NCBI GenBank assembly: GCA_963820525.1
Contig: CAWGAA010000001.1
Coordinates: forward strand, 960,001-1,024,000
Length of the DNA stretch: 64,000 bases
Source: an uncultured Spirochaetota bacterium
Lineage (GTDB): Bacteria > Spirochaetota > Spirochaetia > SZUA-6 > Fen-1364
Direction of reading: 5' to 3'
A program made the position numbers and the translations under genes. A model generated the notes under the pieces. The model ran no database searches, had not been told where the DNA came from, and worked only from the letters and a program-made list of their open reading frames with translations. Positions 42,580 through 56,490 of this stretch are shown here, piece after piece. How positions within the stretch are numbered: the stretch's first letter is position 1; every line of letters starts with the position of its first letter.

Positions 42580-43107
42580 TCACCGCTGGTCTTCCATCAT
42601 GATCTCCCGCACCATGGAATCGATCTCGTCCTGCGCGACGTCGGATTTGCGCTCGAACGCGAGCTCCATGTCGGTATCTCTGAGCTTTTTCAGCAGAGTG
42701 TACACCACGATCATGAGGAACTTGACCCCGTCTGCCGGACGTTCCTTGATGAACTGCATGAGCTGGCTGCGGTGATTCCGCAATAAAACAGTGTCGGTAG
42801 CGGCTTCAACGTTCGCGGTTCTCTTCACGTTCATGAAGATCCCCGCTTCACCGAATATCGAGCCCTCCCCGATGGTGGACAGGAACACCGTCTTGGTACC
42901 GTCCCGCGCGGTGACGTTCACCGATCCCTCCAAAACGGCGTAGAGGTAGGGGCTCGCCTCTCCCTCGTGGATGATCGTTTCGCCTTCCGTGAACGAATGT
43001 ACCTCCGCCCTGCTGAAAAAATCTCCCAGTGCCTCGTCGTCGAAGTACTTGAACAGGGGGATCTTTTTCAACGTGGGCAGGTATTTTTCCTTATTGGGAA
43101 CGAGCAT
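42580..43107 (-). CDS. Stand-alone cyclic-nucleotide-binding protein (no HTH)
   Basis: IPLF, I.HEGE, L.GSV.V, FGEAGIF...RTANV.A; AGGAGG RBS. Confidence 0.9.
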   Translation of the reverse strand: MLVPNKEKYLPTLKKIPLFKYFDDEALGDFFSRAEVHSFTEGETIIHEGEASPYLYAVLEGSVNVTARDGTKTVFLSTIGEGSIFGEAGIFMNVKRTANVEAATDTVLLRNHRSQLMQFIKERPADGVKFLMIVVYTLLKKLRDTDMELAFERKSDVAQDEIDSMVREIMMEDQR

Positions 43108-44113: not shown

Positions 44114-47100
44114 TCACTCTCCCGGCCGCTCCGCCGACTCTTCGCGGGCCGGCCATCCGAGCGAGGAGAAAGAGGGTTTCAGCTCACGCCAGATGCGGTC
44201 GAACTCCTCGTCAATGAGCGACGCGTCCTCTGCCGTTCGCGCGCTCTGGCGGCACACCTCGTGGAGCCTCTGGAACGCCTGCCCAAGATTCCGAATGAAG
44301 GTCTCGACGGCCGCGCGCTCGATCGTCACATCGGTTGGAGCCGGGGTGGGCGCGGCCGCATCCGGCTGCCTGCTTCTTTTGAGGGGATCCCGATCGGCCG
44401 GGATACCGAGGACGATTTCCATCGGCTCCCATGCCTTGATGGGCTCCCGCATGCCCTTGACGTCTATCATTCCGAGATCGTTTGCGTGGATCCAGTCGCT
44501 CACCTTCGCGAAGATCTCCTGGGAGATGCAGGTCGATCCGCCCCGGGCGACGGTCTGAAGGCGGGAGGCGATGTTCACCGTGTTGCCGAGCGCGTCCCCG
44601 CCTTTTTCCACCACATCACCCCAGTGGATCCCGATTCTCACCACTACCCGCATCTTCTCGGGACGGAAGCGGTTGAACCGTCTCAGAGCTTTCTGCACGC
44701 GGATTGCGGCAAGCACTGCGAACAACGGCTCCGAAAAGAGGAAGAGATGGCCGTCCCCCATTCTCTTGACCAGCGCCCCTTCATGGGCGCCGACGATCGG
44801 AAGGAGAATCCCCTCGTACTCCTGAAGCAGGGTGGTGATTTCCAGCGGGGACAGCTCCTGTGACTTGCTCGAGTAGTCTTGGATATCGGAGAAAAGGACG
44901 GCGCACATGCGCACGTGCTCGCGTTCGAACCTGTAGGTGTCCTTCTCCGTGGAGAAGCGCACCTCCTGCTCGTCCACGGGTTCCACCTCAGCCGGCTCGG
45001 CGTCGATAGCGGGCATCCGCAGAACGCGGACCATGCTGACGAGCAGTTGCTGCGCGCGGGGGTCGCTCGTCATGGGAAGCACGTCCCTGAGGGTCTCCTG
45101 CAGCCATTTGTCATGCTCTCTCAGCAGGGACCAGACGACGGCGATGACGGCGGGGGAAAGCTCATCGCGGAGGTCGCGGACGAGCATGATCCGGTCCGTC
45201 GAGGCCAGCCGGGAGAGCACGTCGGAGAGCACGCGCACGGCATAGTCGTCCCCCAGGGTGATGAGGGTGGCGGGGACCCGCGCGATCACAGCGGGAGAGC
45301 CGCTGCGAAGAACCCGGTAGAGGAACTCCGTGAGTGCGGGCACCCTCACGGGAGAGCACCGGTGCGCGATGCGGTGGATGAAGGAGACGGTGAGGATCTT
45401 TTTCCACTCGTCGAAGCGATCATAGACGTCGATGACGGCGCAGGCGATGTCGACGTCGGCCTTGGCGCCGAGCAGGTCCGCGAGCCGGGAGGCAGCTTCC
45501 CTGTCCGACTCAACGGAGAACAGCTGGAGGATGACGCGCTGCAGGTTTTCCCGCAGCGCCCTGGCGGAGGAGAGGGCATCGAGCAGCGCGATGCGGATGT
45601 AGCGGTCGTTCTCGTGCAGAAGGTTTATGAGAGTGGGTTCCATCGCCGCGAGGTCGAGATCCTTAATCAGCTCGATGGCGGCGATTGCGAGCATCTTGTT
45701 CGTCACGGGAGGCCTCATGCAGTCCTGGCAGGCCACGAGCGCGGATGCGGGGTCAGCCCGGTTGAGCGCAAACAGGGCACGCTCCGCCAGCCGATGCAGC
45801 TTCATCTTCCGCGCCCAGTCCAAAAGGGGGCCGAGCAGCTCCTTCATGTCCGCAAAGTCCGCGAGCCGCAAAATCGAGAGGGCCCGCTTGAGGCGGCAGA
45901 GGATCCGCCTCTTCTCGGTCTTCGCGACGGCAAGGTGGCGGATGAAGAGGGCGATGCCTGATCTGGTGGGATCCGCCAAGAGCTCGTGCAGGATCCCATA
46001 CCCTTCGAAGTGGCATGCTTCCAGCTTTACGGCGGATCGTTTCAGGAGCTGCACCGAACGCTGTCTCTCCACAGAGCTGCCGCCGCTCTTTATGGACCGG
46101 AGAAAGGTCCTCTTCGCTTCTTCGTCGAAGTAGAACTCCATGTACTCCTTGGCCTTCGCGATCTGCATACCCATTTCATGGGACGTGTCGATGTCCCTCT
46201 CGCAGGCTTTTTGTAGGTCGTCAAAAAGCCCGGCGATCCTCGCGGGCAGATCGGCAAGGCTCGGCAGCGCGGGCGCGGATTTCGCGGCGCGCGCGATCGA
46301 CTCCATTCCATCGATGGCCTGCAGCGCCTCCTCTTCGAGTGAGGGGTCCGCCTCCACCGCTTCCGCGAGCAGGGCGCACAGCGCATCGAAAGAGGTGAGC
46401 TGCGAGGGCAAGGACCCGAGTTGCCTGTAGCATTCCCGCCGGATCCCCGGGTCCTCGTCCGCGAGGGACTGGAGGAAGATGTCGCGTGCCGCTTCCGTTG
46501 CCAGTGGTGCGGCGAGCCCTATGAGCTTGACGCGCAGAGGCACGGGCAGCCGCACATGCGTCTCCCGGCAGGAGGCGAGCACCGCCTGGGAGAGACGCTC
46601 GTCTTTCTTGGCGATTTGCAGCAGGGGAGCAAGACCGCCGTGTTCCTGTACGGCCAACGAAAGCGCGTTTTCCGCCCCGTCCCGCGACTCCAGTTGGATG
46701 AGTACTTCCAGGGAAGCGGCGCGTGTTTCCGGCTGTACCGTGGGAGAATGCGCGAGTGAGGAGGCAATCTGGCGCGCATCGGGGGAATCGGGGAATGTGG
46801 AGGCGAGGGTGCGGAGAACCTCGAGCTGCACGGTTTCTTCCCTCCGGGCGGCCGCGAGCTTGAGCAGGAAAGGGAGAGTCTTGGGCGCTCGGATCTTGCC
46901 CGAGGTACGAACGGCCGCGCAGACGATCTCAGGGTCCGGATGGCTGAAGAGCCGCGCAATGTGAGTGAAGCTGCGGATATCCGCAAGGGTCCCGAGCGCC
47001 CGAAGCGCGGAAACGGCCACTTGCGGGCGGGAGTCGAAGATGTCGGCATGGAGGATGTCGAAGGTCCTGTCATCCCGGCCGAACTCACCCAGAATCAGGT

Positions 47101-47185
47101 GCGTGGTCAGGATAGCCTCCACGTTCAGCTCTCCGGAGGGAGGACGGGCTTTCGAGTGCAGTGCCGTGTCCGTGCCGCTCACCAC
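44114..47185 (-). CDS. HEAT-repeat protein with C-terminal class III adenylate cyclase
   Basis: Many HEAT-like units (VAVSALRALG, LADEDPGIRRECY, ENDRYIRIALLDAL); cyclase motifs FSDI, KRMGDG, RIGIHWG, DALGNTVNIASRL. Confidence 0.9.
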   Translation of the reverse strand: MVSGTDTALHSKARPPSGELNVEAILTTHLILGEFGRDDRTFDILHADIFDSRPQVAVSALRALGTLADIRSFTHIARLFSHPDPEIVCAAVRTSGKIRAPKTLPFLLKLAAARREETVQLEVLRTLASTFPDSPDARQIASSLAHSPTVQPETRAASLEVLIQLESRDGAENALSLAVQEHGGLAPLLQIAKKDERLSQAVLASCRETHVRLPVPLRVKLIGLAAPLATEAARDIFLQSLADEDPGIRRECYRQLGSLPSQLTSFDALCALLAEAVEADPSLEEEALQAIDGMESIARAAKSAPALPSLADLPARIAGLFDDLQKACERDIDTSHEMGMQIAKAKEYMEFYFDEEAKRTFLRSIKSGGSSVERQRSVQLLKRSAVKLEACHFEGYGILHELLADPTRSGIALFIRHLAVAKTEKRRILCRLKRALSILRLADFADMKELLGPLLDWARKMKLHRLAERALFALNRADPASALVACQDCMRPPVTNKMLAIAAIELIKDLDLAAMEPTLINLLHENDRYIRIALLDALSSARALRENLQRVILQLFSVESDREAASRLADLLGAKADVDIACAVIDVYDRFDEWKKILTVSFIHRIAHRCSPVRVPALTEFLYRVLRSGSPAVIARVPATLITLGDDYAVRVLSDVLSRLASTDRIMLVRDLRDELSPAVIAVVWSLLREHDKWLQETLRDVLPMTSDPRAQQLLVSMVRVLRMPAIDAEPAEVEPVDEQEVRFSTEKDTYRFEREHVRMCAVLFSDIQDYSSKSQELSPLEITTLLQEYEGILLPIVGAHEGALVKRMGDGHLFLFSEPLFAVLAAIRVQKALRRFNRFRPEKMRVVVRIGIHWGDVVEKGGDALGNTVNIASRLQTVARGGSTCISQEIFAKVSDWIHANDLGMIDVKGMREPIKAWEPMEIVLGIPADRDPLKRSRQPDAAAPTPAPTDVTIERAAVETFIRNLGQAFQRLHEVCRQSARTAEDASLIDEEFDRIWRELKPSFSSLGWPAREESAERPGE

Positions 47186-47381
47186 GTGCTCCTGCCTGCG
47201 GTGAAAGATTTCCCCTTCCGTGCGTTACGGGCTTCTCGCATCGCATATGGAGGCATAGCTTCGGGTCCTTTCCTGAAGCTTAGCGAGAAACGATAGAACG
47301 ATCAATCAGCGTATGGAGAAGCGTTCAGGCTCATACGGCCCGAAGATTGGATCCTTCAGGGGAAAATTATCGTGCGGCTTG

Positions 47382-48854
47382 TCATTTTGGCTGCCTGGAT
47401 TGCCCCACAAGTTCGGGGAAATCGTAGCTGCGTTCAACAAAGTAGCGGAGGTCGAAATCCTCATGGGTAACGACGATCAGGATGGTGGCGTTTTCCGCCA
47501 TATAGTCCGAAATGGCCTGCATCACCTTGGTCCGTGTCTCGAAGTCGATATGGGCGAAGGGCTCGTCCAGAAGCAGGACCTCAGGCTTTGCGGCCAGGGC
47601 CCGGGCTATGTCCATGCGCTTCATTTCACCGGAGGAAAGCGAACGCGGGTGAGAATCGAGATGGACGCCTGCAAGTCCCACTTTCGCCAGGTAATTCAGC
47701 AGCTCCTCACAGTTGAAACTGCCCGGCCCGCCCTGGGCTTCGGCGATATGCCTGATGGAGTCCCGGATACGCTGGTCCGGAAAGAAGGCGAAGCGCGAAT
47801 CCTGCTGGACCACGGCCATCTTCCGCCTGAAGGGGAGGAATGCGCTCGGGTCGTTTCCGCGTTCGCGCGGCTTGATCGCCACCAGGTCCTCCCCGTCTAA
47901 AAAGATATTCCCCTTCGTCCCGTCGAGGAGGCGCAGGATGGCCTTGATCATGCTCGACTTGCCGCAGCCGGAGGGACCGGTGATCCCGTAGATCGTGGAG
48001 CGGTCGAACGTGATGGAGAGCTCGGTGAACGCCTTGAAAGTACGCTCTCCGAAAATGCCCCGCTTGAAGTAGCTCTGGGACAGATTATCGATCGAAAGAC
48101 CCGCGGCTTGCGATTTCTTGGCCTCGGGCTTCTCGAAGCCGTTTGCATGAGGAATCTCCTTGAGGCGCACGAGGCGGGCGTTTTCCAGGGCATAGGCGTG
48201 ATTCAATTTCAGGGCCCGGATGAAATCCAGATCGTGGCTGGCCATCAGCACCGTCTTGTCCTTGGCTGAAAGGATTTCCGTGTTGAGGAAGTCGATGAAT
48301 CGCTTGCGAAGATTGCGGTCCAGGTTCACGGTCGGTTCGTCCAGCACTACGAGATCGCCCTGCCGGGAAAGAAGGATCATCAGGGTGATGCGCTGGAGCT
48401 CGCCGCCGGAGACCTCATCCGGATACAGGCGGGCGAAGGATCCGAAATCGAGCCCGAAATGCGCTTTGAGCCTGCGCTCGATGGTAGCGCGCGATTCGGG
48501 CGCAAGGAGCTTCAGGTTTTGTTCGAGGGTGAGGGCCGGGTTCATGGCCTGGGCGCTTTCGGCCGGAACGAATACCAGACCGCGCACCATGATTTCCGAC
48601 CAGAGCTTCTGACCGGTCTTGCGACCATTCACATAGGCATCGATTCCGTTCACCTGCATGGAACCGCCAAGCCTGAAGGTTCGGGTCGGAAGAAGTCCGG
48701 CAATAGTCTTCAGGAACACGGATTTTCCGACGCCGGTTGGCCCGATGATGACCGAGGAGCTGCCTTGCGCGGGAGCGAAATCGCCGTCCTTTACCAGAGG
48801 GCGGTCGTCGAGGGTTATGGAAAAGCCGTTGAGCGAGATGGGGGGCGCTTTCAT
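47382..48854 (-). CDS. Double-domain ABC ATPase (fused OppD/OppF-like)
   Basis: GPTGVGKS / VSGGE / LDEP / H, then GPSGCGKS / LSSGE / LDEP / H. Confidence 0.92.
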   Translation of the reverse strand: MKAPPISLNGFSITLDDRPLVKDGDFAPAQGSSSVIIGPTGVGKSVFLKTIAGLLPTRTFRLGGSMQVNGIDAYVNGRKTGQKLWSEIMVRGLVFVPAESAQAMNPALTLEQNLKLLAPESRATIERRLKAHFGLDFGSFARLYPDEVSGGELQRITLMILLSRQGDLVVLDEPTVNLDRNLRKRFIDFLNTEILSAKDKTVLMASHDLDFIRALKLNHAYALENARLVRLKEIPHANGFEKPEAKKSQAAGLSIDNLSQSYFKRGIFGERTFKAFTELSITFDRSTIYGITGPSGCGKSSMIKAILRLLDGTKGNIFLDGEDLVAIKPRERGNDPSAFLPFRRKMAVVQQDSRFAFFPDQRIRDSIRHIAEAQGGPGSFNCEELLNYLAKVGLAGVHLDSHPRSLSSGEMKRMDIARALAAKPEVLLLDEPFAHIDFETRTKVMQAISDYMAENATILIVVTHEDFDLRYFVERSYDFPELVGQSRQPK

Positions 48855-49642
48855 GCGGTGATTTCCTTCTGATCGCCCAGCGTGAGGAGAAAGGAGATGC
48901 TGATCACCACCAGGAGCAGGGATGGCAGCCAGAAAAGGATGGGCGTTCCTCCATCGAACAGGGCATCCCGATTGGCTGCGATCAGGGCGCCGGGACTGGC
49001 GTGCGCCGGGGTGCCGTAGCTCCCGAAGCCGAGCTGGATGATGAAGCCGAAGGAGCAGTCGAGCACGAGGGTCTTCAACAATATGCCCGCCGACACGCGT
49101 TTCAGGGTGTTGCGCATGGCGTGCGAACCCATCAGGACGGCCAGAATCCGCCGTTTGGTGAAGCCGTAGGAGCGGAACGACAGGCTGTATTTCCGGTGGT
49201 ACAGATCTGCGAGAGGGATCGCAATACCGCGTACCGCTTCCGGCAGGGCCGTCAGGGTTGCGGCCAGGATAAATACGATCAACGACATCATCTGCGAGGC
49301 CCCGACCGTATGGCTGGCAAGGTAGCCCGAAACAGGGGCGTAGCAGAAGAGGGCCACGAGGATGGCCGGAACAGATTCGACCGCGTTCAGGATGCTCGCG
49401 CCCGTCCTGCCGAAGCGCTGGGCCAGGACGCTCGCGTAGCCCAGGACCACGGTGAGAAGGGTCGCCAGGCCAAGGGTCGCGGCGAGGGTGATCGACAATT
49501 GCCTGAAGGAGGATTGGAGGGCCGCCTCAAAGGCCGGAGCCAGGTAGCCCGGCAGCCATTCAGCCGGCAGCCAAGCCAGGGCGAGCGGCGATGCCAGGAC
49601 GAGCAGGCAGATCGCCCTGGCAATTTTATAGAGCTTTCTCAT
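48851..49642 (-). CDS. Divergent OppC/DppC-like permease
   Basis: About six TMs, ES.PAIL, degenerate EAA region, SFGF..QLGFG....P; position in operon. Confidence 0.75.
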   Translation of the reverse strand: MRKLYKIARAICLLVLASPLALAWLPAEWLPGYLAPAFEAALQSSFRQLSITLAATLGLATLLTVVLGYASVLAQRFGRTGASILNAVESVPAILVALFCYAPVSGYLASHTVGASQMMSLIVFILAATLTALPEAVRGIAIPLADLYHRKYSLSFRSYGFTKRRILAVLMGSHAMRNTLKRVSAGILLKTLVLDCSFGFIIQLGFGSYGTPAHASPGALIAANRDALFDGGTPILFWLPSLLLVVISISFLLTLGDQKEITA

Positions 49643-50510
49643 ACCACCTCGGATAGATGAGGAACAGGAAAGATTTGACCATGAAGGCGACAATCGCGTT
49701 CACGCATAGCAGGATGAATACCGAAGCCACGAGGAGATCCGTGTTTGCAGCCAGCAGGGCTTCCAGCAGCGTGCTCCCGAGGCCGGGGAAGGAGAAGACG
49801 ATTTCCGCGATCGTCACCGCGCCTATGATGGCGGAGACTTTGCCCGCGAGGTAAGGGATGAAGCGCGGCAGGCTCGAGGAGAACAGATAGCCGGAAAAGG
49901 TGCCGGGCAGCGGCAAAAAGTAGCCCAGGGGTCTGCCCAGGGTGGTGAAGACGGTGGCATGGGTGGCTTCAACCTGGCGCAGCATGTCTGACATGAGGAA
50001 GCGGGTGGCGTCCCAGGCCAGTCCTCCGAGGGCGATCGTGGCTGCGGCGATCATGAGGAACGGCGCCCGGCTTCCGAAGCCGGTGGCAAGCGTCCAGAAG
50101 CCGACGAAAATGGGAACCGCCGCCAGCACGGACGCAAGGAAGTCGGCGAAATGTCTGAAGATTTCGGTGCCGTGCTGGCCGTGCTTGCTGGCGAGATAGC
50201 GGGCCGTGGTGGCGAAGGCGGAGCCGAAGAGGGCCGCCAGGGTCAGCAGGATGAGGGAAGCCAGGGCCAGCGGGAGGGTGACGGCCGCCCCGCTTGAGAT
50301 GATCTGCCCGGCGCTGAAGCCGGGATGTTCGATCGAGAAATCCTTGGAACCCGAGATCAGGAGGAGGAAGGATCTTCCGGTTTTGGCAAAGCTCTCCACC
50401 GGCGCGCCGATGGAGAGCAGGTAGAGACAGGCGAGGATCGCGGTTCCCGCCACGGTAAAAACGATGCCGTGGATCAGGAGCTCGCGCATCAAAAATCGCA
50501 GGAATCGCAT
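49626..50510 (-). CDS. Divergent OppB/DppB-like permease
   Basis: TLPLA, AVPIF, GAVTIAEIVFSFPGLG.LL.A. Confidence 0.85.
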   Translation of the reverse strand: MRFLRFLMRELLIHGIVFTVAGTAILACLYLLSIGAPVESFAKTGRSFLLLISGSKDFSIEHPGFSAGQIISSGAAVTLPLALASLILLTLAALFGSAFATTARYLASKHGQHGTEIFRHFADFLASVLAAVPIFVGFWTLATGFGSRAPFLMIAAATIALGGLAWDATRFLMSDMLRQVEATHATVFTTLGRPLGYFLPLPGTFSGYLFSSSLPRFIPYLAGKVSAIIGAVTIAEIVFSFPGLGSTLLEALLAANTDLLVASVFILLCVNAIVAFMVKSFLFLIYPRWYEKAL

Positions 50511-50514
50511 CAGC

Positions 50515-52110
50515 TCAACCCCCTATCGACCAGTCTTCGATCGATAGGAACGGATTGTCCGTCGCGATGGCCACGTCCTTGAGTCCGCGGGAATATACGT
50601 CCTTCTGAAGTTTGAAGAGGAAAATGGCCGGAGCAAGCTCGGAAATCCTCTCGTTGATCTTGAGGGTGAGCTCCACCCAGTCGGCGGTGACCACCGCCTT
50701 GTCCCACTGATCGAACAGCTTGTCCAGTTTGCTGTCCCTGATGCCGGAGACATTGTAAGCCCCGTTCGAGCGGTACCATTGACCCAGGCTCGAATAGAGG
50801 TTGTCGAAACCGTCGCAGTAGACAAGGGCCAGCTCATAGGACTTTTCGGTGAACACCATGCGCTTGTAGACCTGGTCTCCGGTGCGCTTGGCCTCGACCG
50901 TGAGCCCGATCCGGGCGAGCTGGGCGACAATGCTCTGCGCCATCCGGGTTCCGAATTCGCCGAGGGAATCCGGGTAGAGGAGTATGGCGGCCTGTCCTTT
51001 GATGCCGTCGGTTTCCGCGAGTTTCTCCGCTTCCGAGAGATCCTGAGGCAGCAGGTTCGGAAGGGGTTTGTTGACGTATTCCGGAATATTGCTGGAGAAG
51101 ATATCCGAGGGGAACGGGCCGTAGTTCAGCACCACTCCTTGCTTCCGATCGGTGATCTGGGGCACGAGGCTGGCGCGGTCGAGGGCCATGGACATGACCT
51201 TGCGGACCTCGGCGTTGGGGAAGAGCCTGGTGTTGATGGCAACCTGATAGAAGGCGTATGGCTGGAACGATTCGATATTGATCCTCGACATCTTCTCCAC
51301 CTGGGGGCGGTCCGTGGGCGAGGTCTCAAGAACCAGGTTGACCTGGTTCTTGGCGAGCTCGTTCATCCGGATGATGGGATCGATTACCCTCTTGATGACG
51401 AGGGAGGAGGCCTCTGGGCGTTTCTTGAAATAGGCGCCATTCGCGTCGAAACTGACCCATTTTCCGATTTCCCATCCGGTGAGCTTGAAGGGGCCCGTTC
51501 CGACCGGTTCGACGGCGAAGTTCCGTTCGTTCTCGCCCGAGCGCATGTTGACTTCCATCTTCTGGCCGCGGTAGTTGGCGGGAATGATCTTGAAGGTCAG
51601 CACAGGGTAGGCGCGGAAGGGAGGGATGGGTTTGGTGAACTCGATCTCCACGTTCCGCTCGTCTATTGCCTTTACGCTCTTGATGAAGGACATGAGATCG
51701 TCGCGTTTGGGAGAATCGTTTTTAGGGTCGGTATAGGCGGCGAAGGAGTAGACGACGTCCTCAGAGGTGAGCTCCGTCCCATCGTGCCAGTAGACCTGCC
51801 TGAGGAGGGCTGTATACGTCTTCTTGGTGGCGGGATCCTGATCGATGCTCTCCGCCAGGGCGAGCTCGGGGTAGAGCTTGCCGCTCTGCTGATCTACCTC
51901 GAAGTTGACCAGGCCGTCGAAGACGAGCTCATCGGCATTGAGGCCGGAGACGTTCTGTTCGAGCACCGGATTGAGGGAGTCGGGCAGGTTTGAAACGGCA
52001 ACGACGATACCCTTGGGCTCGGGTTTCCAAAGGAGAAAAACTCCAACCGCGGCCGCTATGGCGACGGCTGCGATGCCAATAATGACGATAGCCCGTTTGT
52101 TGCTTCTCAT
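50515..52110 (-). CDS. Family 5 (peptide/nickel) substrate-binding protein, anchored by an N-terminal TM
   Basis: DSLNP, VFDGLV, PELALAES, YWHDG.ELTSEDVVYS, PVGTGPF. Confidence 0.93.
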   Translation of the reverse strand: MRSNKRAIVIIGIAAVAIAAAVGVFLLWKPEPKGIVVAVSNLPDSLNPVLEQNVSGLNADELVFDGLVNFEVDQQSGKLYPELALAESIDQDPATKKTYTALLRQVYWHDGTELTSEDVVYSFAAYTDPKNDSPKRDDLMSFIKSVKAIDERNVEIEFTKPIPPFRAYPVLTFKIIPANYRGQKMEVNMRSGENERNFAVEPVGTGPFKLTGWEIGKWVSFDANGAYFKKRPEASSLVIKRVIDPIIRMNELAKNQVNLVLETSPTDRPQVEKMSRINIESFQPYAFYQVAINTRLFPNAEVRKVMSMALDRASLVPQITDRKQGVVLNYGPFPSDIFSSNIPEYVNKPLPNLLPQDLSEAEKLAETDGIKGQAAILLYPDSLGEFGTRMAQSIVAQLARIGLTVEAKRTGDQVYKRMVFTEKSYELALVYCDGFDNLYSSLGQWYRSNGAYNVSGIRDSKLDKLFDQWDKAVVTADWVELTLKINERISELAPAIFLFKLQKDVYSRGLKDVAIATDNPFLSIEDWSIGG

Positions 52111-53570
52111 TAGCGCATCCTCATGATGAACGAGCTGTAGACGACGACTTCGCCTTCGTAATCGGCGGTTTTGCCCCCTTGTATCTCAAAGAAGTATTTG
52201 TCGGATGCGAGCTGGCTGCCGGCGTTCAGAACCGGCCAGGAATTGCCGACCTTATAGCCCCGGTTGACCAGGTCTTTCATCTTGTTTTTTTCGATGAGGG
52301 TTCCGGACTTGGTGTTTTCCGCGAAGACGCGCACCGTTCGGCTGTCTTTGACCGTGACCACCAGGTCGTTCATCGTTGCCTTGGGGATGGAGACCATGCC
52401 CCACCAGTATTCGTTCTTCTTGGCTCCCGAGGCCTGGAAAACTGCGGGGCGGCTCTTTTTGGATTCCGCCGTACTTCCGGGCTGTGGATTGAACAGGCCG
52501 ATCATTATCGGCATGACGACCTTGCCCCTGCGTGCGATCTCCTTGGCGGTCCGGATCTCGGCATTGACCTGGGCGATCTTTGCGTCGAGGTCATTTTTCT
52601 GATCCTCGACTTCCTTGATCATGTCAGGGTCCATGGCCTGGGGATAGCGGGCGGCGAACCGGGTCATCTCGTTGTAGGCCGCCTCGACGTTGGCCTTTAC
52701 GGATTCCTGGTGCTTGGCGAGCTCATCGAGGGTCATGGTGCCGACCTTGCTCTTCTCCGGCACGCGGGCGAATTCCTCGCCGATGCGGTCCTTGAAGGAG
52801 TAGGCCTGCTCGCGCAGGAGTTTTTCCCTCTCGATGGCCACATCCTGACGTTTCTTGCGGAGCCTGGAGGCCTCCCTGGCGACGCCCTGATTCTTGGATA
52901 CCTTGGCACGGCCGGCTTCGTCCGCCAGGATGGTTTCCGCCTTGGCGTAGGCGCTGGAAGCCGCATCCAAGCCATTGATCTTCTCGTCGAAGGATACGGC
53001 TTCCCGGGCTTTCTGCAGGGTCGCGTCGGCGTCGACGTCGCGCTTACGGGAACTTCCGATCACGTCGATCTCCGCGCTCATCGAGGCGATCGCGTCCGTT
53101 CCGCCGAAGGTCTCGACGGCTCCTTTCCCCAGCTCTCGGGCGTAGGACAGCCTGTCCGCCGTGATGAGGGAACGCATCCTCCCCTCTGCCAGGGCGTTGC
53201 CGCTCGCGCGGATATCCTCGGGGAGCGCGAGATCTTTTGGAAGGCCCGCGAGGGCCTTCCGGGCCTTTTCATACGAGGCCAGGATTCGCGCCTCGTCACC
53301 CGGCTTCGCGGCCGCCGCATCGGCCAGGGACTTTGCACTGGAATCGAACGTGCCCACGTACCCGGTGTATTTATCGCGGGTGGGCTTGTCCTTGATCGTG
53401 CTCCAATACGGCGTCGCAGCCGAAGGATCTTTCTCGATCCAGGCGGCCGCACCCTTGGCGATTGCTTTTTCGTCCGGCGTGCCCTTTGAGCCGGGACCTT
53501 GAAGCGTCTCGCATGAAGCGAGAAGCATCAGGAGAATGGCGGCTGCCGCGGTGTATATCTTCCTATTCAT
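52110..53570 (-). CDS. Uncharacterised lipoprotein with long helical/coiled-coil region and a C-terminal beta domain
   Basis: Lipobox LLASC; Ala/Lys/Glu heptads; stop overlaps the SBP start. Confidence 0.8.
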   Translation of the reverse strand: MNRKIYTAAAAILLMLLASCETLQGPGSKGTPDEKAIAKGAAAWIEKDPSAATPYWSTIKDKPTRDKYTGYVGTFDSSAKSLADAAAAKPGDEARILASYEKARKALAGLPKDLALPEDIRASGNALAEGRMRSLITADRLSYARELGKGAVETFGGTDAIASMSAEIDVIGSSRKRDVDADATLQKAREAVSFDEKINGLDAASSAYAKAETILADEAGRAKVSKNQGVAREASRLRKKRQDVAIEREKLLREQAYSFKDRIGEEFARVPEKSKVGTMTLDELAKHQESVKANVEAAYNEMTRFAARYPQAMDPDMIKEVEDQKNDLDAKIAQVNAEIRTAKEIARRGKVVMPIMIGLFNPQPGSTAESKKSRPAVFQASGAKKNEYWWGMVSIPKATMNDLVVTVKDSRTVRVFAENTKSGTLIEKNKMKDLVNRGYKVGNSWPVLNAGSQLASDKYFFEIQGGKTADYEGEVVVYSSFIMRMR

Positions 53571-55176
53571 GTAAAGCCTCCCTTACGAGCCGGAATCCGA
53601 CATCGACGTATCCCTTCGAAGGATCGAGATCGCGGCGGTTGGAAACGCGGAGATCCGTGGGGCCATCCATCCAGGATCCGCCCTTGACGATCATATTTGC
53701 GGTTCCCGCGTCCTTGCCCGCGTCTTTCGGGGTGGACGTCCACTGCCAGACATTACCGGCCATGTCGAACAGGCCGTATACATTCCTGCCCGCTTCGAAA
53801 CTGCCCACCGGCGAGGTGGCGCTGAAGCGGCCGTTTCCATTGTAATTTGCCCGTGCTCCGTCGGCGGGGCTCTGATCGCCCCAGGGGTAGACCACGTCCC
53901 GTCCTCCGCGGGCGGCCTTCTCCCATTCATCCTCGGTGGGCAGGCGTTTCACCACGCCAAGCTGCCGGGATAGCCAGGACGCGAAACGGTTCGCGTCCTC
54001 GAAGGAGACGCCGATAACCGGCTGATCGGGTTGGTTGTATTCGGGGTTGTCCCAGTAATCCGGGAAGGTTTCGGCTCTCGTGTCCTCGAGGAACATCTCA
54101 TACAGGGCATTGGTGACAGGGTAGACGTCGATAGTGAAATCCGACGTCTTTGCCTGACGCGGGGCTTCCTTCCTGGCTGCCCGTTTGTCCCGGGCCAGGG
54201 AGCCGGCGGTAAAGGAGCCGCCGGGAACGCGGACTTCGGCGCTGAAGAATTTCGCGACGTCATCGAAGTGGCGGTAGCGGAGCTCTGCTCGCGCGGCATC
54301 GTCGATACTCTTCAGTTCCGCCGAGTGGGGGGCCGACTGGGCGAAGTCGGTTGTTATCGTGACGCGGATGCCGCGGTTGCGGAAGGACTCTCCCGGCGGG
54401 TACTCGAGGACGGCCCTGCCGTCCGGTCCCGCGGTCGCGGGCGAGATGGAGGGTTCGATCTCTTTGGCCGTCCACTCGACGCGGAGCGGAAGGGAACCGG
54501 CCGGTTTGCCGTCGCGGGTCTGGACCTGGGCCGTTAGCGCCGTATCCTTGCCGATAAAGCCGCCCTCCGGGGTCGCCGTGATCGATAGTCCGGCCGTGAT
54601 CTCGCGGCAGAACGACTCGATTGTCGAAAATACGAGGGGAGATCCGGGGCCCTTTCCGGTCAACAGATCCGCGAGCCCTTCCTTGCTCAGGCGATCGAGC
54701 AACTCGCCCGCCTCGAGCATACGCTGCGCCAGGGGCAGACCCGATCCATCATTCAAAGCGGCGAGTTTTTGCATGATTCCCGTTCTGATCGCGGTCTCTC
54801 GGGCTTCCTCGTATTTTTCCCATTCCGTTGCTTTGATGCGGTATACGATGGTCGCGGAACCGGCGGCTTTTTCCTGTGCGACGGGCTTGAGCTCGGGAAG
54901 CTTGAAGACTTTCGCCGCCTCGGCGCTGATCTCGATGCGCCCTTTGCGGATTCCGTCACGCTTTGCCGACTCGGTAAGGGCGTTGGAGATCAGATCTCGC
55001 TTGGCTTCATCCGCCGCTTCGGAGGCCGATGATCCCGAGCCGAAACCGTAATAAAAGCCGTTTTCCTGTCTGACTTCTGCTGGGCTGACCGAGGCGCAGG
55101 AAAGCATGGTGAACACGGCTAGGCAGAGAGAAACTGTGCACGCCACGAAGAGGGTTCGTTGTGCTTTGGATTGCAT
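53563..55176 (-). CDS. Lipoprotein with LPP20-like N-terminus and FGE-sulfatase (SUMF1) C-terminal domain
   Basis: Lipobox MLSC; YYGFGSG...A...A; PVTN..Y, PV.GVS, RLPTEDEWEKAARGG, YPWG, GLFDMAGNVWQW, KGGSW, GFR. Confidence 0.9.
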   Translation of the reverse strand: MQSKAQRTLFVACTVSLCLAVFTMLSCASVSPAEVRQENGFYYGFGSGSSASEAADEAKRDLISNALTESAKRDGIRKGRIEISAEAAKVFKLPELKPVAQEKAAGSATIVYRIKATEWEKYEEARETAIRTGIMQKLAALNDGSGLPLAQRMLEAGELLDRLSKEGLADLLTGKGPGSPLVFSTIESFCREITAGLSITATPEGGFIGKDTALTAQVQTRDGKPAGSLPLRVEWTAKEIEPSISPATAGPDGRAVLEYPPGESFRNRGIRVTITTDFAQSAPHSAELKSIDDAARAELRYRHFDDVAKFFSAEVRVPGGSFTAGSLARDKRAARKEAPRQAKTSDFTIDVYPVTNALYEMFLEDTRAETFPDYWDNPEYNQPDQPVIGVSFEDANRFASWLSRQLGVVKRLPTEDEWEKAARGGRDVVYPWGDQSPADGARANYNGNGRFSATSPVGSFEAGRNVYGLFDMAGNVWQWTSTPKDAGKDAGTANMIVKGGSWMDGPTDLRVSNRRDLDPSKGYVDVGFRLVREALHE

Positions 55177-56237: not shown

Positions 56238-56319
56238 CCCGGCAACGACCTACTCTCCCACCCCTAAAGGGCAGTACCATCGGCGCGGCAGGGCTTAACT
56301 TCCGTGTTCGGAATGGGAA
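56238..56319 (-). rRNA. rrf: 5S rRNA, 3' portion only (5'-truncated orphan or pseudogene)
   Basis: Reverse complement reads TTCCCATTCCGAACACGGAAGTTAAGCCCTGCCGCGCCGATGGTACTGC...GTGGGAGAGTAGGTCGTTGCCGGG, then T8; no 5' helix-I strand and no 23S nearby. Confidence 0.88.
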
Positions 56320-56347
56320 GTGGTCCCCTCTGCGCCATTCTTCTTTT

Positions 56348-56490
56348 GGGCGTGCCCCCGCGAGCCGGCTGCATTATGCGGTGGGTGTCCGCTCTCCAAA
56401 TCCCCGGCTCACGGGGTCGGGCTGCTTCGGGCTACGCTTCGCTTCGGCCCTTCGGGCCGCCTTCGGCGCCCTCCGCATCCCTCACGCGGA
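56348..56490 (+). ncRNA. Flavo-1-like structured RNA or dispersed repeat
   Basis: GGGCGTGCCCCCG...CGGGGTCGGGCT...ATCCCTCACGC; terminal GCGTG/CACGC pairing; internal GGCCC-TTCG-GGCC and CGCC-TTCG-GCG hairpins; family recalled from memory. Confidence 0.6.

Follow-up and report, generated by a model that had tools for sequence, protein, structure and literature searches.

A conserved six-gene cassette of spirochaetes links an orphan lipoprotein and an exported FGE-fold protein to a divergent Opp/Dpp-type ABC system

RESULTS

Gene content of the locus

This work concerns a gene cluster of an uncultured Spirochaetota bacterium (GenBank assembly GCA_963820525.1, contig CAWGAA010000001.1, positions 960,001 to 1,024,000 of the forward strand; this whole stretch of 64,000 nucleotides is called the window). 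Six genes code, in this order, for an exported protein with the fold of the formylglycine-generating enzyme (FGE), an orphan lipoprotein called LP486, a family-5 solute-binding protein (SBP), two putative permeases (PermB and PermC) and a fused double ATP-binding cassette (ABC) ATPase, and a gene for a HEAT-repeat adenylate cyclase follows on the same strand after a gap of 196 nt (Table 1). A previous reading of this DNA from its letters alone (the sequence-only reading) had the six genes overlapping or abutting from 55176 to 47382. We found all seven open reading frames (ORFs) on the minus strand at the coordinates that it named, and confirmed the junctions: the FGE and LP486 genes overlap by 8 nt, LP486 and SBP by 1 nt, PermB and PermC by 17 nt (with PermC starting at the ATG at 49642, a start supported by its homologues) and PermC and ATPase by 4 nt, while 4 nt separate SBP from PermB. 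The GC content of the cassette is 0.603, that of the genome 0.604, and the genome holds one full-length close copy of each cassette gene. Promoter and terminator scans gave results at chance level.

Conservation of the cassette

Genome contigs were scanned with an LP486 alignment, and the best 80 of 85 confirmed stretches gave 78 loci; metagenomes, scanned with a broader alignment, contributed 77. These sets are partly redundant with each other, many of their members are kin, and the position counts given here use only those loci whose contig reaches far enough to test. All six genes are present in 59 of the 78 genome loci. The FGE gene lies directly upstream of LP486 in 71 of 72 genome loci and 49 of 54 metagenome loci, the SBP gene directly downstream of it in 74/74 and 68/69, and the ATPase gene in its expected position in 60/60 and 30/35. 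The FGE and ATPase misses correspond to a divergent two-gene variant, and the lone SBP miss is apparently a contig of 1.5 kb (L177). These neighbourhood counts bear out the earlier view that two exported proteins and a divergent ABC system form one unit: the six genes are a single, strictly ordered and conserved cassette, and their order is far beyond chance.

No flanking gene family recurs in more than seven genome loci. The sampled neighbours of the cassette (92 genes scanned out of 96 picked, after skipping 12 near-redundant loci) are an unrelated miscellany with no conserved seventh gene, regulator or catabolic enzyme, so that the lack of a peptidase or catabolic gene beside the transporter, pointed out before for the window, extends to the family. 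Three genes for methyl-accepting chemotaxis proteins among the 46 downstream neighbours are taken as chance, and the neighbour scans revealed no recurring kinase or cyclase adjoining the six-gene form.

By record title, homologous loci are almost all from Spirochaetota, with one record titled Aminicenantes and two unassigned. LP486 and the SBP subfamily were found, adjacent to each other, in the same 11 of 301 genomes sampled across the phylum, and a search of 401 genomes from the class found PermC in 17. In the Aminicenantes record (L065) the FGE and LP486 genes lie at a contig end, and transfer or misbinning are both possible. In two Treponema loci another FGE-sulfatase gene immediately precedes the cassette (L059:6254-7804 and L067:3958-5025), and in one 60%-complete genome (G001; L007:9323-13961) the SBP and the ATPase match in pieces that lie in different frames, probably because of assembly errors.

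Table 1. Genes of the cassette and the adjoining cyclase (window coordinates), and loci of the two-gene variant
Feature	Position	Strand	Remarks
Exported FGE-fold protein, 537 aa	53563..55176	-	Pfam FGE-sulfatase, residues 313-532
Orphan lipoprotein LP486	52110..53570	-	without Pfam match; lipobox Cys20
Family-5 SBP, 531 aa	50515..52110	-	SBP_bac_5, PF00496, E 6e-54
PermB, DppB-like permease, 294 aa	49626..50510	-	BPD_transp_1, PF00528, E 2e-8
PermC, second permease (DppC position), 263 aa	48851..49642	-	hydrophobic segments, without Pfam match
Fused double ABC ATPase, 490 aa	47382..48854	-	two ABC_tran stretches
HEAT-repeat class III adenylate cyclase, 1023 aa	44114..47185	-	HEAT_2 and Guanylate_cyc
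LP-SBP variant loci	L176:7743-12489, L114:7716-12462, L181-L184		behind a dCache-like/PAS/GGDEF gene

The two accessory exported proteins

LP486 gave nothing credible in Pfam or NCBIfam, no match at E<=0.001 in Foldseek, no usable match for the whole protein in the Atlas and no match among plasmids. A profile search of 1.84 billion representatives returned 60 matches, nearly all of them family members or their fragments, and the family comprises at least 305 sequence clusters. The protein had been described as a coiled-coil lipoprotein, and both features hold: a lipobox-like Cys is present in 72 of 74 homologues, and the structural model has an N-terminal half with a tetratricopeptide repeat (TPR)-like part and a helical bundle, a long coiled coil and a C-terminal beta-sandwich (about 348-486). 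Mean model confidence (pLDDT) is 81.3; the arrangement of the domains is uncertain because the predicted template-modelling score (pTM) is 0.57. The beta-sandwich, with a median identity of 73% against 61-67% for the ABC genes, is the best conserved of the segments and genes measured. It resembles the lysozyme inhibitor PliG (Z 8.0, root-mean-square deviation (rmsd) 3.3, 102 residues aligned, 12% identity) and the collagenase PPC domain (Z 7.6, rmsd 3.5), a modest resemblance of the model that would indicate its fold, not its function. The Atlas hits of the C-terminal part (unnamed clusters at 0.90-0.91, PPC clusters at 0.87-0.88) are leads only.

The FGE-fold protein (AlphaFold model, pLDDT 89.6) consists of an LPP20/HP1454-like domain (residues 38-193), an immunoglobulin (Ig)/macroglobulin (MG)-like domain (194-304) and a domain with the FGE/C-type-lectin (CLec) fold (307-537). 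It had been called an LPP20/FGE-sulfatase lipoprotein. The LPP20 part of that name stands: the first domain superimposes on Helicobacter pylori HP1454 (Z 9.5, rmsd 4.4, 137 residues aligned), and 4 of 46 homologues match LPP20, weakly. The lipid anchor does not stand as a trait of the family, as the protein has a lipobox here, in place of which many Treponema homologues carry an ordinary cleaved signal (N-termini judged by eye). The second domain resembles an MG domain of complement C5 (Z 11.3). The closest folds to the third are PvdO, SUMF2, TvpA and PorK (Z 26-28), with PvdO at Z 27.9. Catalytic formylglycine-generating enzymes have two copper-binding active-site cysteines; 42 of 68 homologous domains are devoid of any Cys, and the commonest forms of the aligned region have none. 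A catalytic role as an FGE was rejected, since the domain has no conserved cysteines.

The predicted transporter proteins

The SBP scores 184 bits with its Pfam family (cut-off 32.4). Hydropathy shows a hydrophobic N-terminal segment and a lipobox-like Cys is found in only 4 of 66 homologues, which leads us to predict an uncleaved inner-membrane anchor. The nearest solved relatives are distant (Lmo0135, the Clostridioides difficile protein 6i3g and DppA), and of its PDB matches, those to SapA, YejA-like and MppA chains belong to the weakest. R383 and D436 of DppA bind the termini of the dipeptide, D436 the one with the amine (PMC12136057). R383 is without an aligned counterpart in the SBP, the profile alignment having a 4-residue deletion at this place, and one position away from D436 the SBP has an acidic residue (position 433, Asp or Glu in 65 of 66 sequences). 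This alignment of the pocket weakly suggests an amine-bearing ligand that would not be a dipeptide. The sole conserved His of the SBP is H109, within the WHD motif in the N-terminal part of the family.

PermB scores 34.5 bits with its Pfam family (cut-off 26.4) and matches Escherichia coli DppB weakly (E 0.09). Its distance from the start to the second transmembrane segment (TM2) is 75-77 aa in 52 of 56 homologues, against 100 in a DppB-like protein of the source genome. Compared with this same protein, the region between TM1 and TM2, where the scoop motif lies, is 23-25 aa shorter (the aligner placed the gap ambiguously) and the TM3-TM4 loop is shorter too; loss of the scoop motif is predicted. 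PermC, too divergent for Pfam, had no match in NCBIfam either; it has several hydrophobic segments, its gene occupies the DppC position, and its median identity is 61%.

The best PDB match of the ATPase is the DppD protein of Mycobacterium tuberculosis (E 5e-31). Both Walker A motifs, both Walker B Asp-Glu pairs and both H-loops are kept in nearly all of the 61 ATPases aligned. The Q-loop Gln of the first nucleotide-binding domain (NBD1) is replaced by Ala in 61/61, and the signature of NBD2 reads LSSGE in 60/61; by standard ABC geometry both changes should fall in the same composite site, and the fused ATPase is predicted to be asymmetric. No Cys occurs beyond the second H-loop in any of the 61 proteins, whose tail of about 24 aa has no C-terminal Fe-S domain; E. 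coli DppD and DppF carry a C-terminal [4Fe-4S] domain (PMC12136057).

A two-gene variant

Six metagenome loci (L104-L107, L114 and L176, two of them nearly identical) and four genomes (G393, G394, G396 and G399, among 69 genomes of the family to which genome G341 belongs) carry a divergent pair of genes for a shorter LP486 homologue (34-39% identity) and a lipidated SBP (38-47% identity). A dCache-like/PAS/GGDEF gene directly precedes the pair in the four genomes and in five of the six metagenome loci, the sixth beginning inside the lipoprotein gene; pyrH follows wherever the contig extends, and the neighbourhood, with a FecR-like gene, pyrH and Mla-like genes, is syntenic. The variant lipoprotein keeps most of the conserved beta-sandwich residues; of 131 near-invariant positions in the SBP, the variant retains 79. 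Searches of the four genomes (completeness unstated) for orthologues of the two permeases, of the ATPase and of the full-length FGE protein found none, and found every one of them in the control genome G341. The variant genomes contain other family-5 systems, which the SBP might borrow.

Since the variant loci form one lineage with a syntenic neighbourhood, they count as a single event, and so does their adjacency to a diguanylate cyclase. What the variant shows is that LP486 and SBP are the tightest pair of the cassette, being retained where no orthologue of the remaining four was found; coupling to a diguanylate cyclase is not shown by it. A hint in the same direction comes from partial distance correlations among 15 protein pairs, in which LP486-SBP (0.61) is second to the two permeases (0.76), in sequence pairs that are not independent of each other.

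The adjoining adenylate cyclase

The sequence-only reading had proposed the HEAT cyclase as the output of the system, a proposal that the neighbourhoods do not bear out. No cyclase match lies downstream of the ATPase gene in any of the loci whose downstream sequence extends for 1 kb or more, 57 from genomes and 28 from metagenomes (at least 3.3 kb in 51 and 23 of them, respectively). The sole cyclase match in any locus (L021, 32% identity) covers the catalytic domain only, upstream and on the opposite strand. Among 41 relatives, LP486 is found in four genomes and HEAT-cyclase-like matches in 36. The eight closest orthologues of the cyclase (56-70% identity) are all in one genus (g3), and none of its 21 genomes, several of which are incomplete, has LP486; no cassette gene was seen in the flanks fetched for these eight. 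Six of the eight have a divergent upstream gene, which implies a promoter of their own. Conversely, of the 18 other genomes with a full cassette, three have a match that extends beyond the catalytic domain (27-36% identity, on other contigs), in four the match is confined to the catalytic domain, and in 11 nothing reached E<=1e-20. The cyclase has no membrane segment and keeps the class III positions D767, K807, D811, D864, N871 and R875, which we take to supply the metal-binding Asp pair, the ATP-specifying Lys and Asp and the catalytic Asn and Arg. It thus has the appearance of an intact and soluble enzyme of class III, one that stands outside the conserved cassette and probably adjoins it by chance. 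That cyclase homologues would not be syntenic with the ABC genes had been named beforehand as the outcome telling against this link, and this is what was found; cAMP output through the adjoining cyclase was rejected on the downstream counts and the near-disjoint distributions.

Several observations on these cyclases fall outside the cassette. A 1015-aa HEAT-cyclase paralogue is encoded about 30 kb from the cyclase (L009:8057-11104; G000:C1, about 1036056-1039103), and most of the genomes sampled in the order have distant homologues of this kind. Four of the eight close orthologues (L089, L090, L092 and L094) have another class III cyclase gene next to them in divergent orientation. In L096, L097 and L099-L102 a second HEAT-cyclase subfamily (35-38% identity) ends a conserved cluster resembling a chemotaxis operon, in which CheA-like and CheX-like ORFs were seen and the remaining members were judged by eye; this suggests a spirochaete chemosensory pathway with cAMP output, and may be the more interesting setting for these enzymes. 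A stand-alone cyclic nucleotide-binding protein of 175 aa is encoded 1 kb downstream of the cyclase (window 42580-43107, minus strand); its gene overlaps the region where a divergent GNAT-like ORF starts and was not found beside cyclase orthologues. Elsewhere in the window, a 5S rRNA gene (56242-56348, minus strand), without adjoining 16S or 23S, is the sole Rfam match.

DISCUSSION

Our results show that six spirochaetal genes form one ordered cassette, in which every part of a type I importer is present. By analogy with known systems, we propose that the cassette encodes a divergent Opp/Dpp-type importer in which a membrane-tethered SBP is served by the elongated lipoprotein LP486 and a non-catalytic FGE-fold protein, and we give this proposal about an even chance of being right. 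From the observed linkage and anatomy we infer binding, localisation, transport and cargo delivery as follows. The SBP would be tethered to the inner membrane by its predicted uncleaved helix, and so could not roam the periplasm. LP486, a putative lipid-anchored rod with a conserved beta-sandwich tip, would likely bind the SBP and deliver or gate the cargo in the manner of TatT, and the cysteine-free FGE-fold protein would likely be a binding or scaffold partner, not an enzyme. The permeases, with their shortened periplasmic loops, would need the two helpers for docking or sealing, and the fused ATPase may power uptake mainly through its one consensus site.

The cassette shares with the Opp/Dpp/Nik (PepT) importers, such as E. 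coli DppABCDF and M. tuberculosis DppABCD, a family-5 SBP and two permeases, PermC being a putative one, and with M. tuberculosis DppD the fusion of two NBDs. To our knowledge, family-5 importers work without accessory proteins. Unlike them, the cassette has two obligate accessory exported proteins and a predicted uncleaved anchor on its SBP; the scoop region of its DppB-like permease is shorter by about 23-25 aa, the Fe-S tail is missing, the NBD1 Q-loop Gln is lost and DppA R383 has no aligned counterpart.

For the role of LP486 our working analogy is the TPAT system of Treponema pallidum (TatT-TatP-TatQM), in which the TPR lipoprotein TatT binds the SBP TatP (PMC5812351). In both cases a spirochaete transporter operon has the gene for a TPR-like helical lipoprotein adjoining the SBP gene, here in 74 of 74 genome loci. 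The cassette is nevertheless not a member of TPAT: its translocator is an ABC system and not a tripartite ATP-independent periplasmic (TRAP) transporter (DctQM), its SBP is of family 5, LP486 carries a coiled coil with a beta-sandwich tip, and there is a second accessory, the FGE-fold protein. No sequence similarity between LP486 and TatT was detected, and TatT is not among the fold matches listed. The FGE-fold protein, in turn, shares its fold and the want of conserved Cys with the non-catalytic FGE/CLec-fold proteins PvdO, SUMF2, TvpA and PorK/GldK; unlike these it is preceded by LPP20-like and Ig-like domains, is tied to an ABC importer, and is conserved (56% median identity) rather than hypervariable.

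Several points weigh against transport. The importer role is read from sequences, models and linkage. The Q-loop loss, the LSSGE signature, the short DppB loop and the absence of an R383 equivalent would fit a non-transporting device equally well; neither a catabolic enzyme nor a regulator travels with the cassette; the structural matches of the helical part of LP486 (Z up to about 11) are generic; and the LP486-SBP pair survives in the variant, where no cognate transporter was found, which means that it can act without this one.

These points lend themselves to another explanation, which we regard as unlikely, namely a trans-envelope sensor in which LP486 together with the SBP senses a ligand or the state of the envelope, the ABC part is an ATP-driven switch and the receiver is encoded elsewhere, in the variant lineage as the dCache-PAS-GGDEF cyclase. 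The degenerate NBD1 site, the short permease loops and the lack of a catabolic gene agree with it, as does the gene directly before the variant pair, SBPs being known to stimulate dCache-type receptors (PMC8050422). The sequence-only reading had seen an architectural analogue of the Pseudomonas TagQRST-PpkA system, in which a lipoprotein, a periplasmic FGE-domain protein and an ABC-like complex are encoded together and the FGE domain of TagR mediates protein contacts (PMC13713981). The likeness of the gene sets stands; it is loose, as the cassette has its own SBP and DppB-like permeases, and no kinase, cyclase, other receiver or type VI secretion gene is conserved with it. The same holds against the sensor at large: the six-gene form has no conserved signalling gene next to it, the diguanylate cyclase adjacency of the variant counts once, and the ATPase retains both catalytic glutamates. 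A related idea, in our opinion just as unlikely, is that LP486-SBP is a portable relay spanning the periplasm, in which the tip of the rod captures a signal and loads the tethered SBP, connected in most spirochaetes to an asymmetric ABC switch that does not transport, with the FGE-fold protein as adaptor, and in one lineage reconnected to a diguanylate cyclase.

We very much doubt that the cassette is an importer for envelope maintenance or defence (Sap/Yej/Mpp-like) that clears cationic peptides or cell-wall fragments, with the PliG-like tip binding a hydrolase or peptide. YejF is likewise a fused ATPase, the acidic pocket residues are conserved without an aligned carboxylate-binding Arg, PliG is the best match of the beta-sandwich and catabolic genes are missing; but SapA, YejA-like and MppA chains rank among the weakest matches of the SBP, the PliG match (12% identity) speaks for fold and not for function, and the cassette occurs in only about 4% of the sampled spirochaete genomes.

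Equally doubtful is a nickel or metallophore importer (Nik/Cnt-like), in which the FGE-fold protein would handle a metallophore as PvdO does for pyoverdine. The best NCBIfam scores are of nickel type (Opp5A/NikA for the SBP, Opp2B for PermB), all far below cut-off; the ATPase is short and without Fe-S tail, PvdO is the top fold match, and Lar_N is found at E<1e-20 in 13 of 19 cassette-bearing genomes against 1 of 15 others, an enrichment confounded by kinship and genome size. Nickel importers of the Nik/Cnt type have one or more pocket histidines in their SBP, whereas the only conserved His here is that of the WHD motif. Moreover, NiFe-hydrogenase is absent in 10 of 10 near-complete cassette genomes of the same class (G148-G331), six of which are also without a strong Lar_N match. 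The nickel enzymes covered, hydrogenase and Lar, thus give a mixed picture.

Signalling by the cassette through the adjoining HEAT cyclase, to which the shared strand, the 196-nt gap without a called terminator-like site and the intact catalytic residues had pointed, is extremely improbable and, given the downstream counts, the near-disjoint distributions and the promoters implied for its orthologues, already refuted as a general mechanism.

No description of this gene combination was found in the open-access literature searched; we regard the cassette as a variant of the family-5 ABC importers with an unannotated family of accessory lipoproteins. A tempting but unsupported cAMP link has been removed from its interpretation. 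By record title, the cassette is present in cultured treponemes of the mouth and the rumen (T. socranskii, T. parvum, T. pectinovorum and T. zioleckii), which puts it within direct reach of experiment, and comparison with the naturally occurring two-gene variant may help to separate transport from sensing. If our proposal is true, the idea of a helper lipoprotein that loads an SBP, known from TPAT, would extend to ABC systems, and a lipoprotein family without annotation would gain a function.

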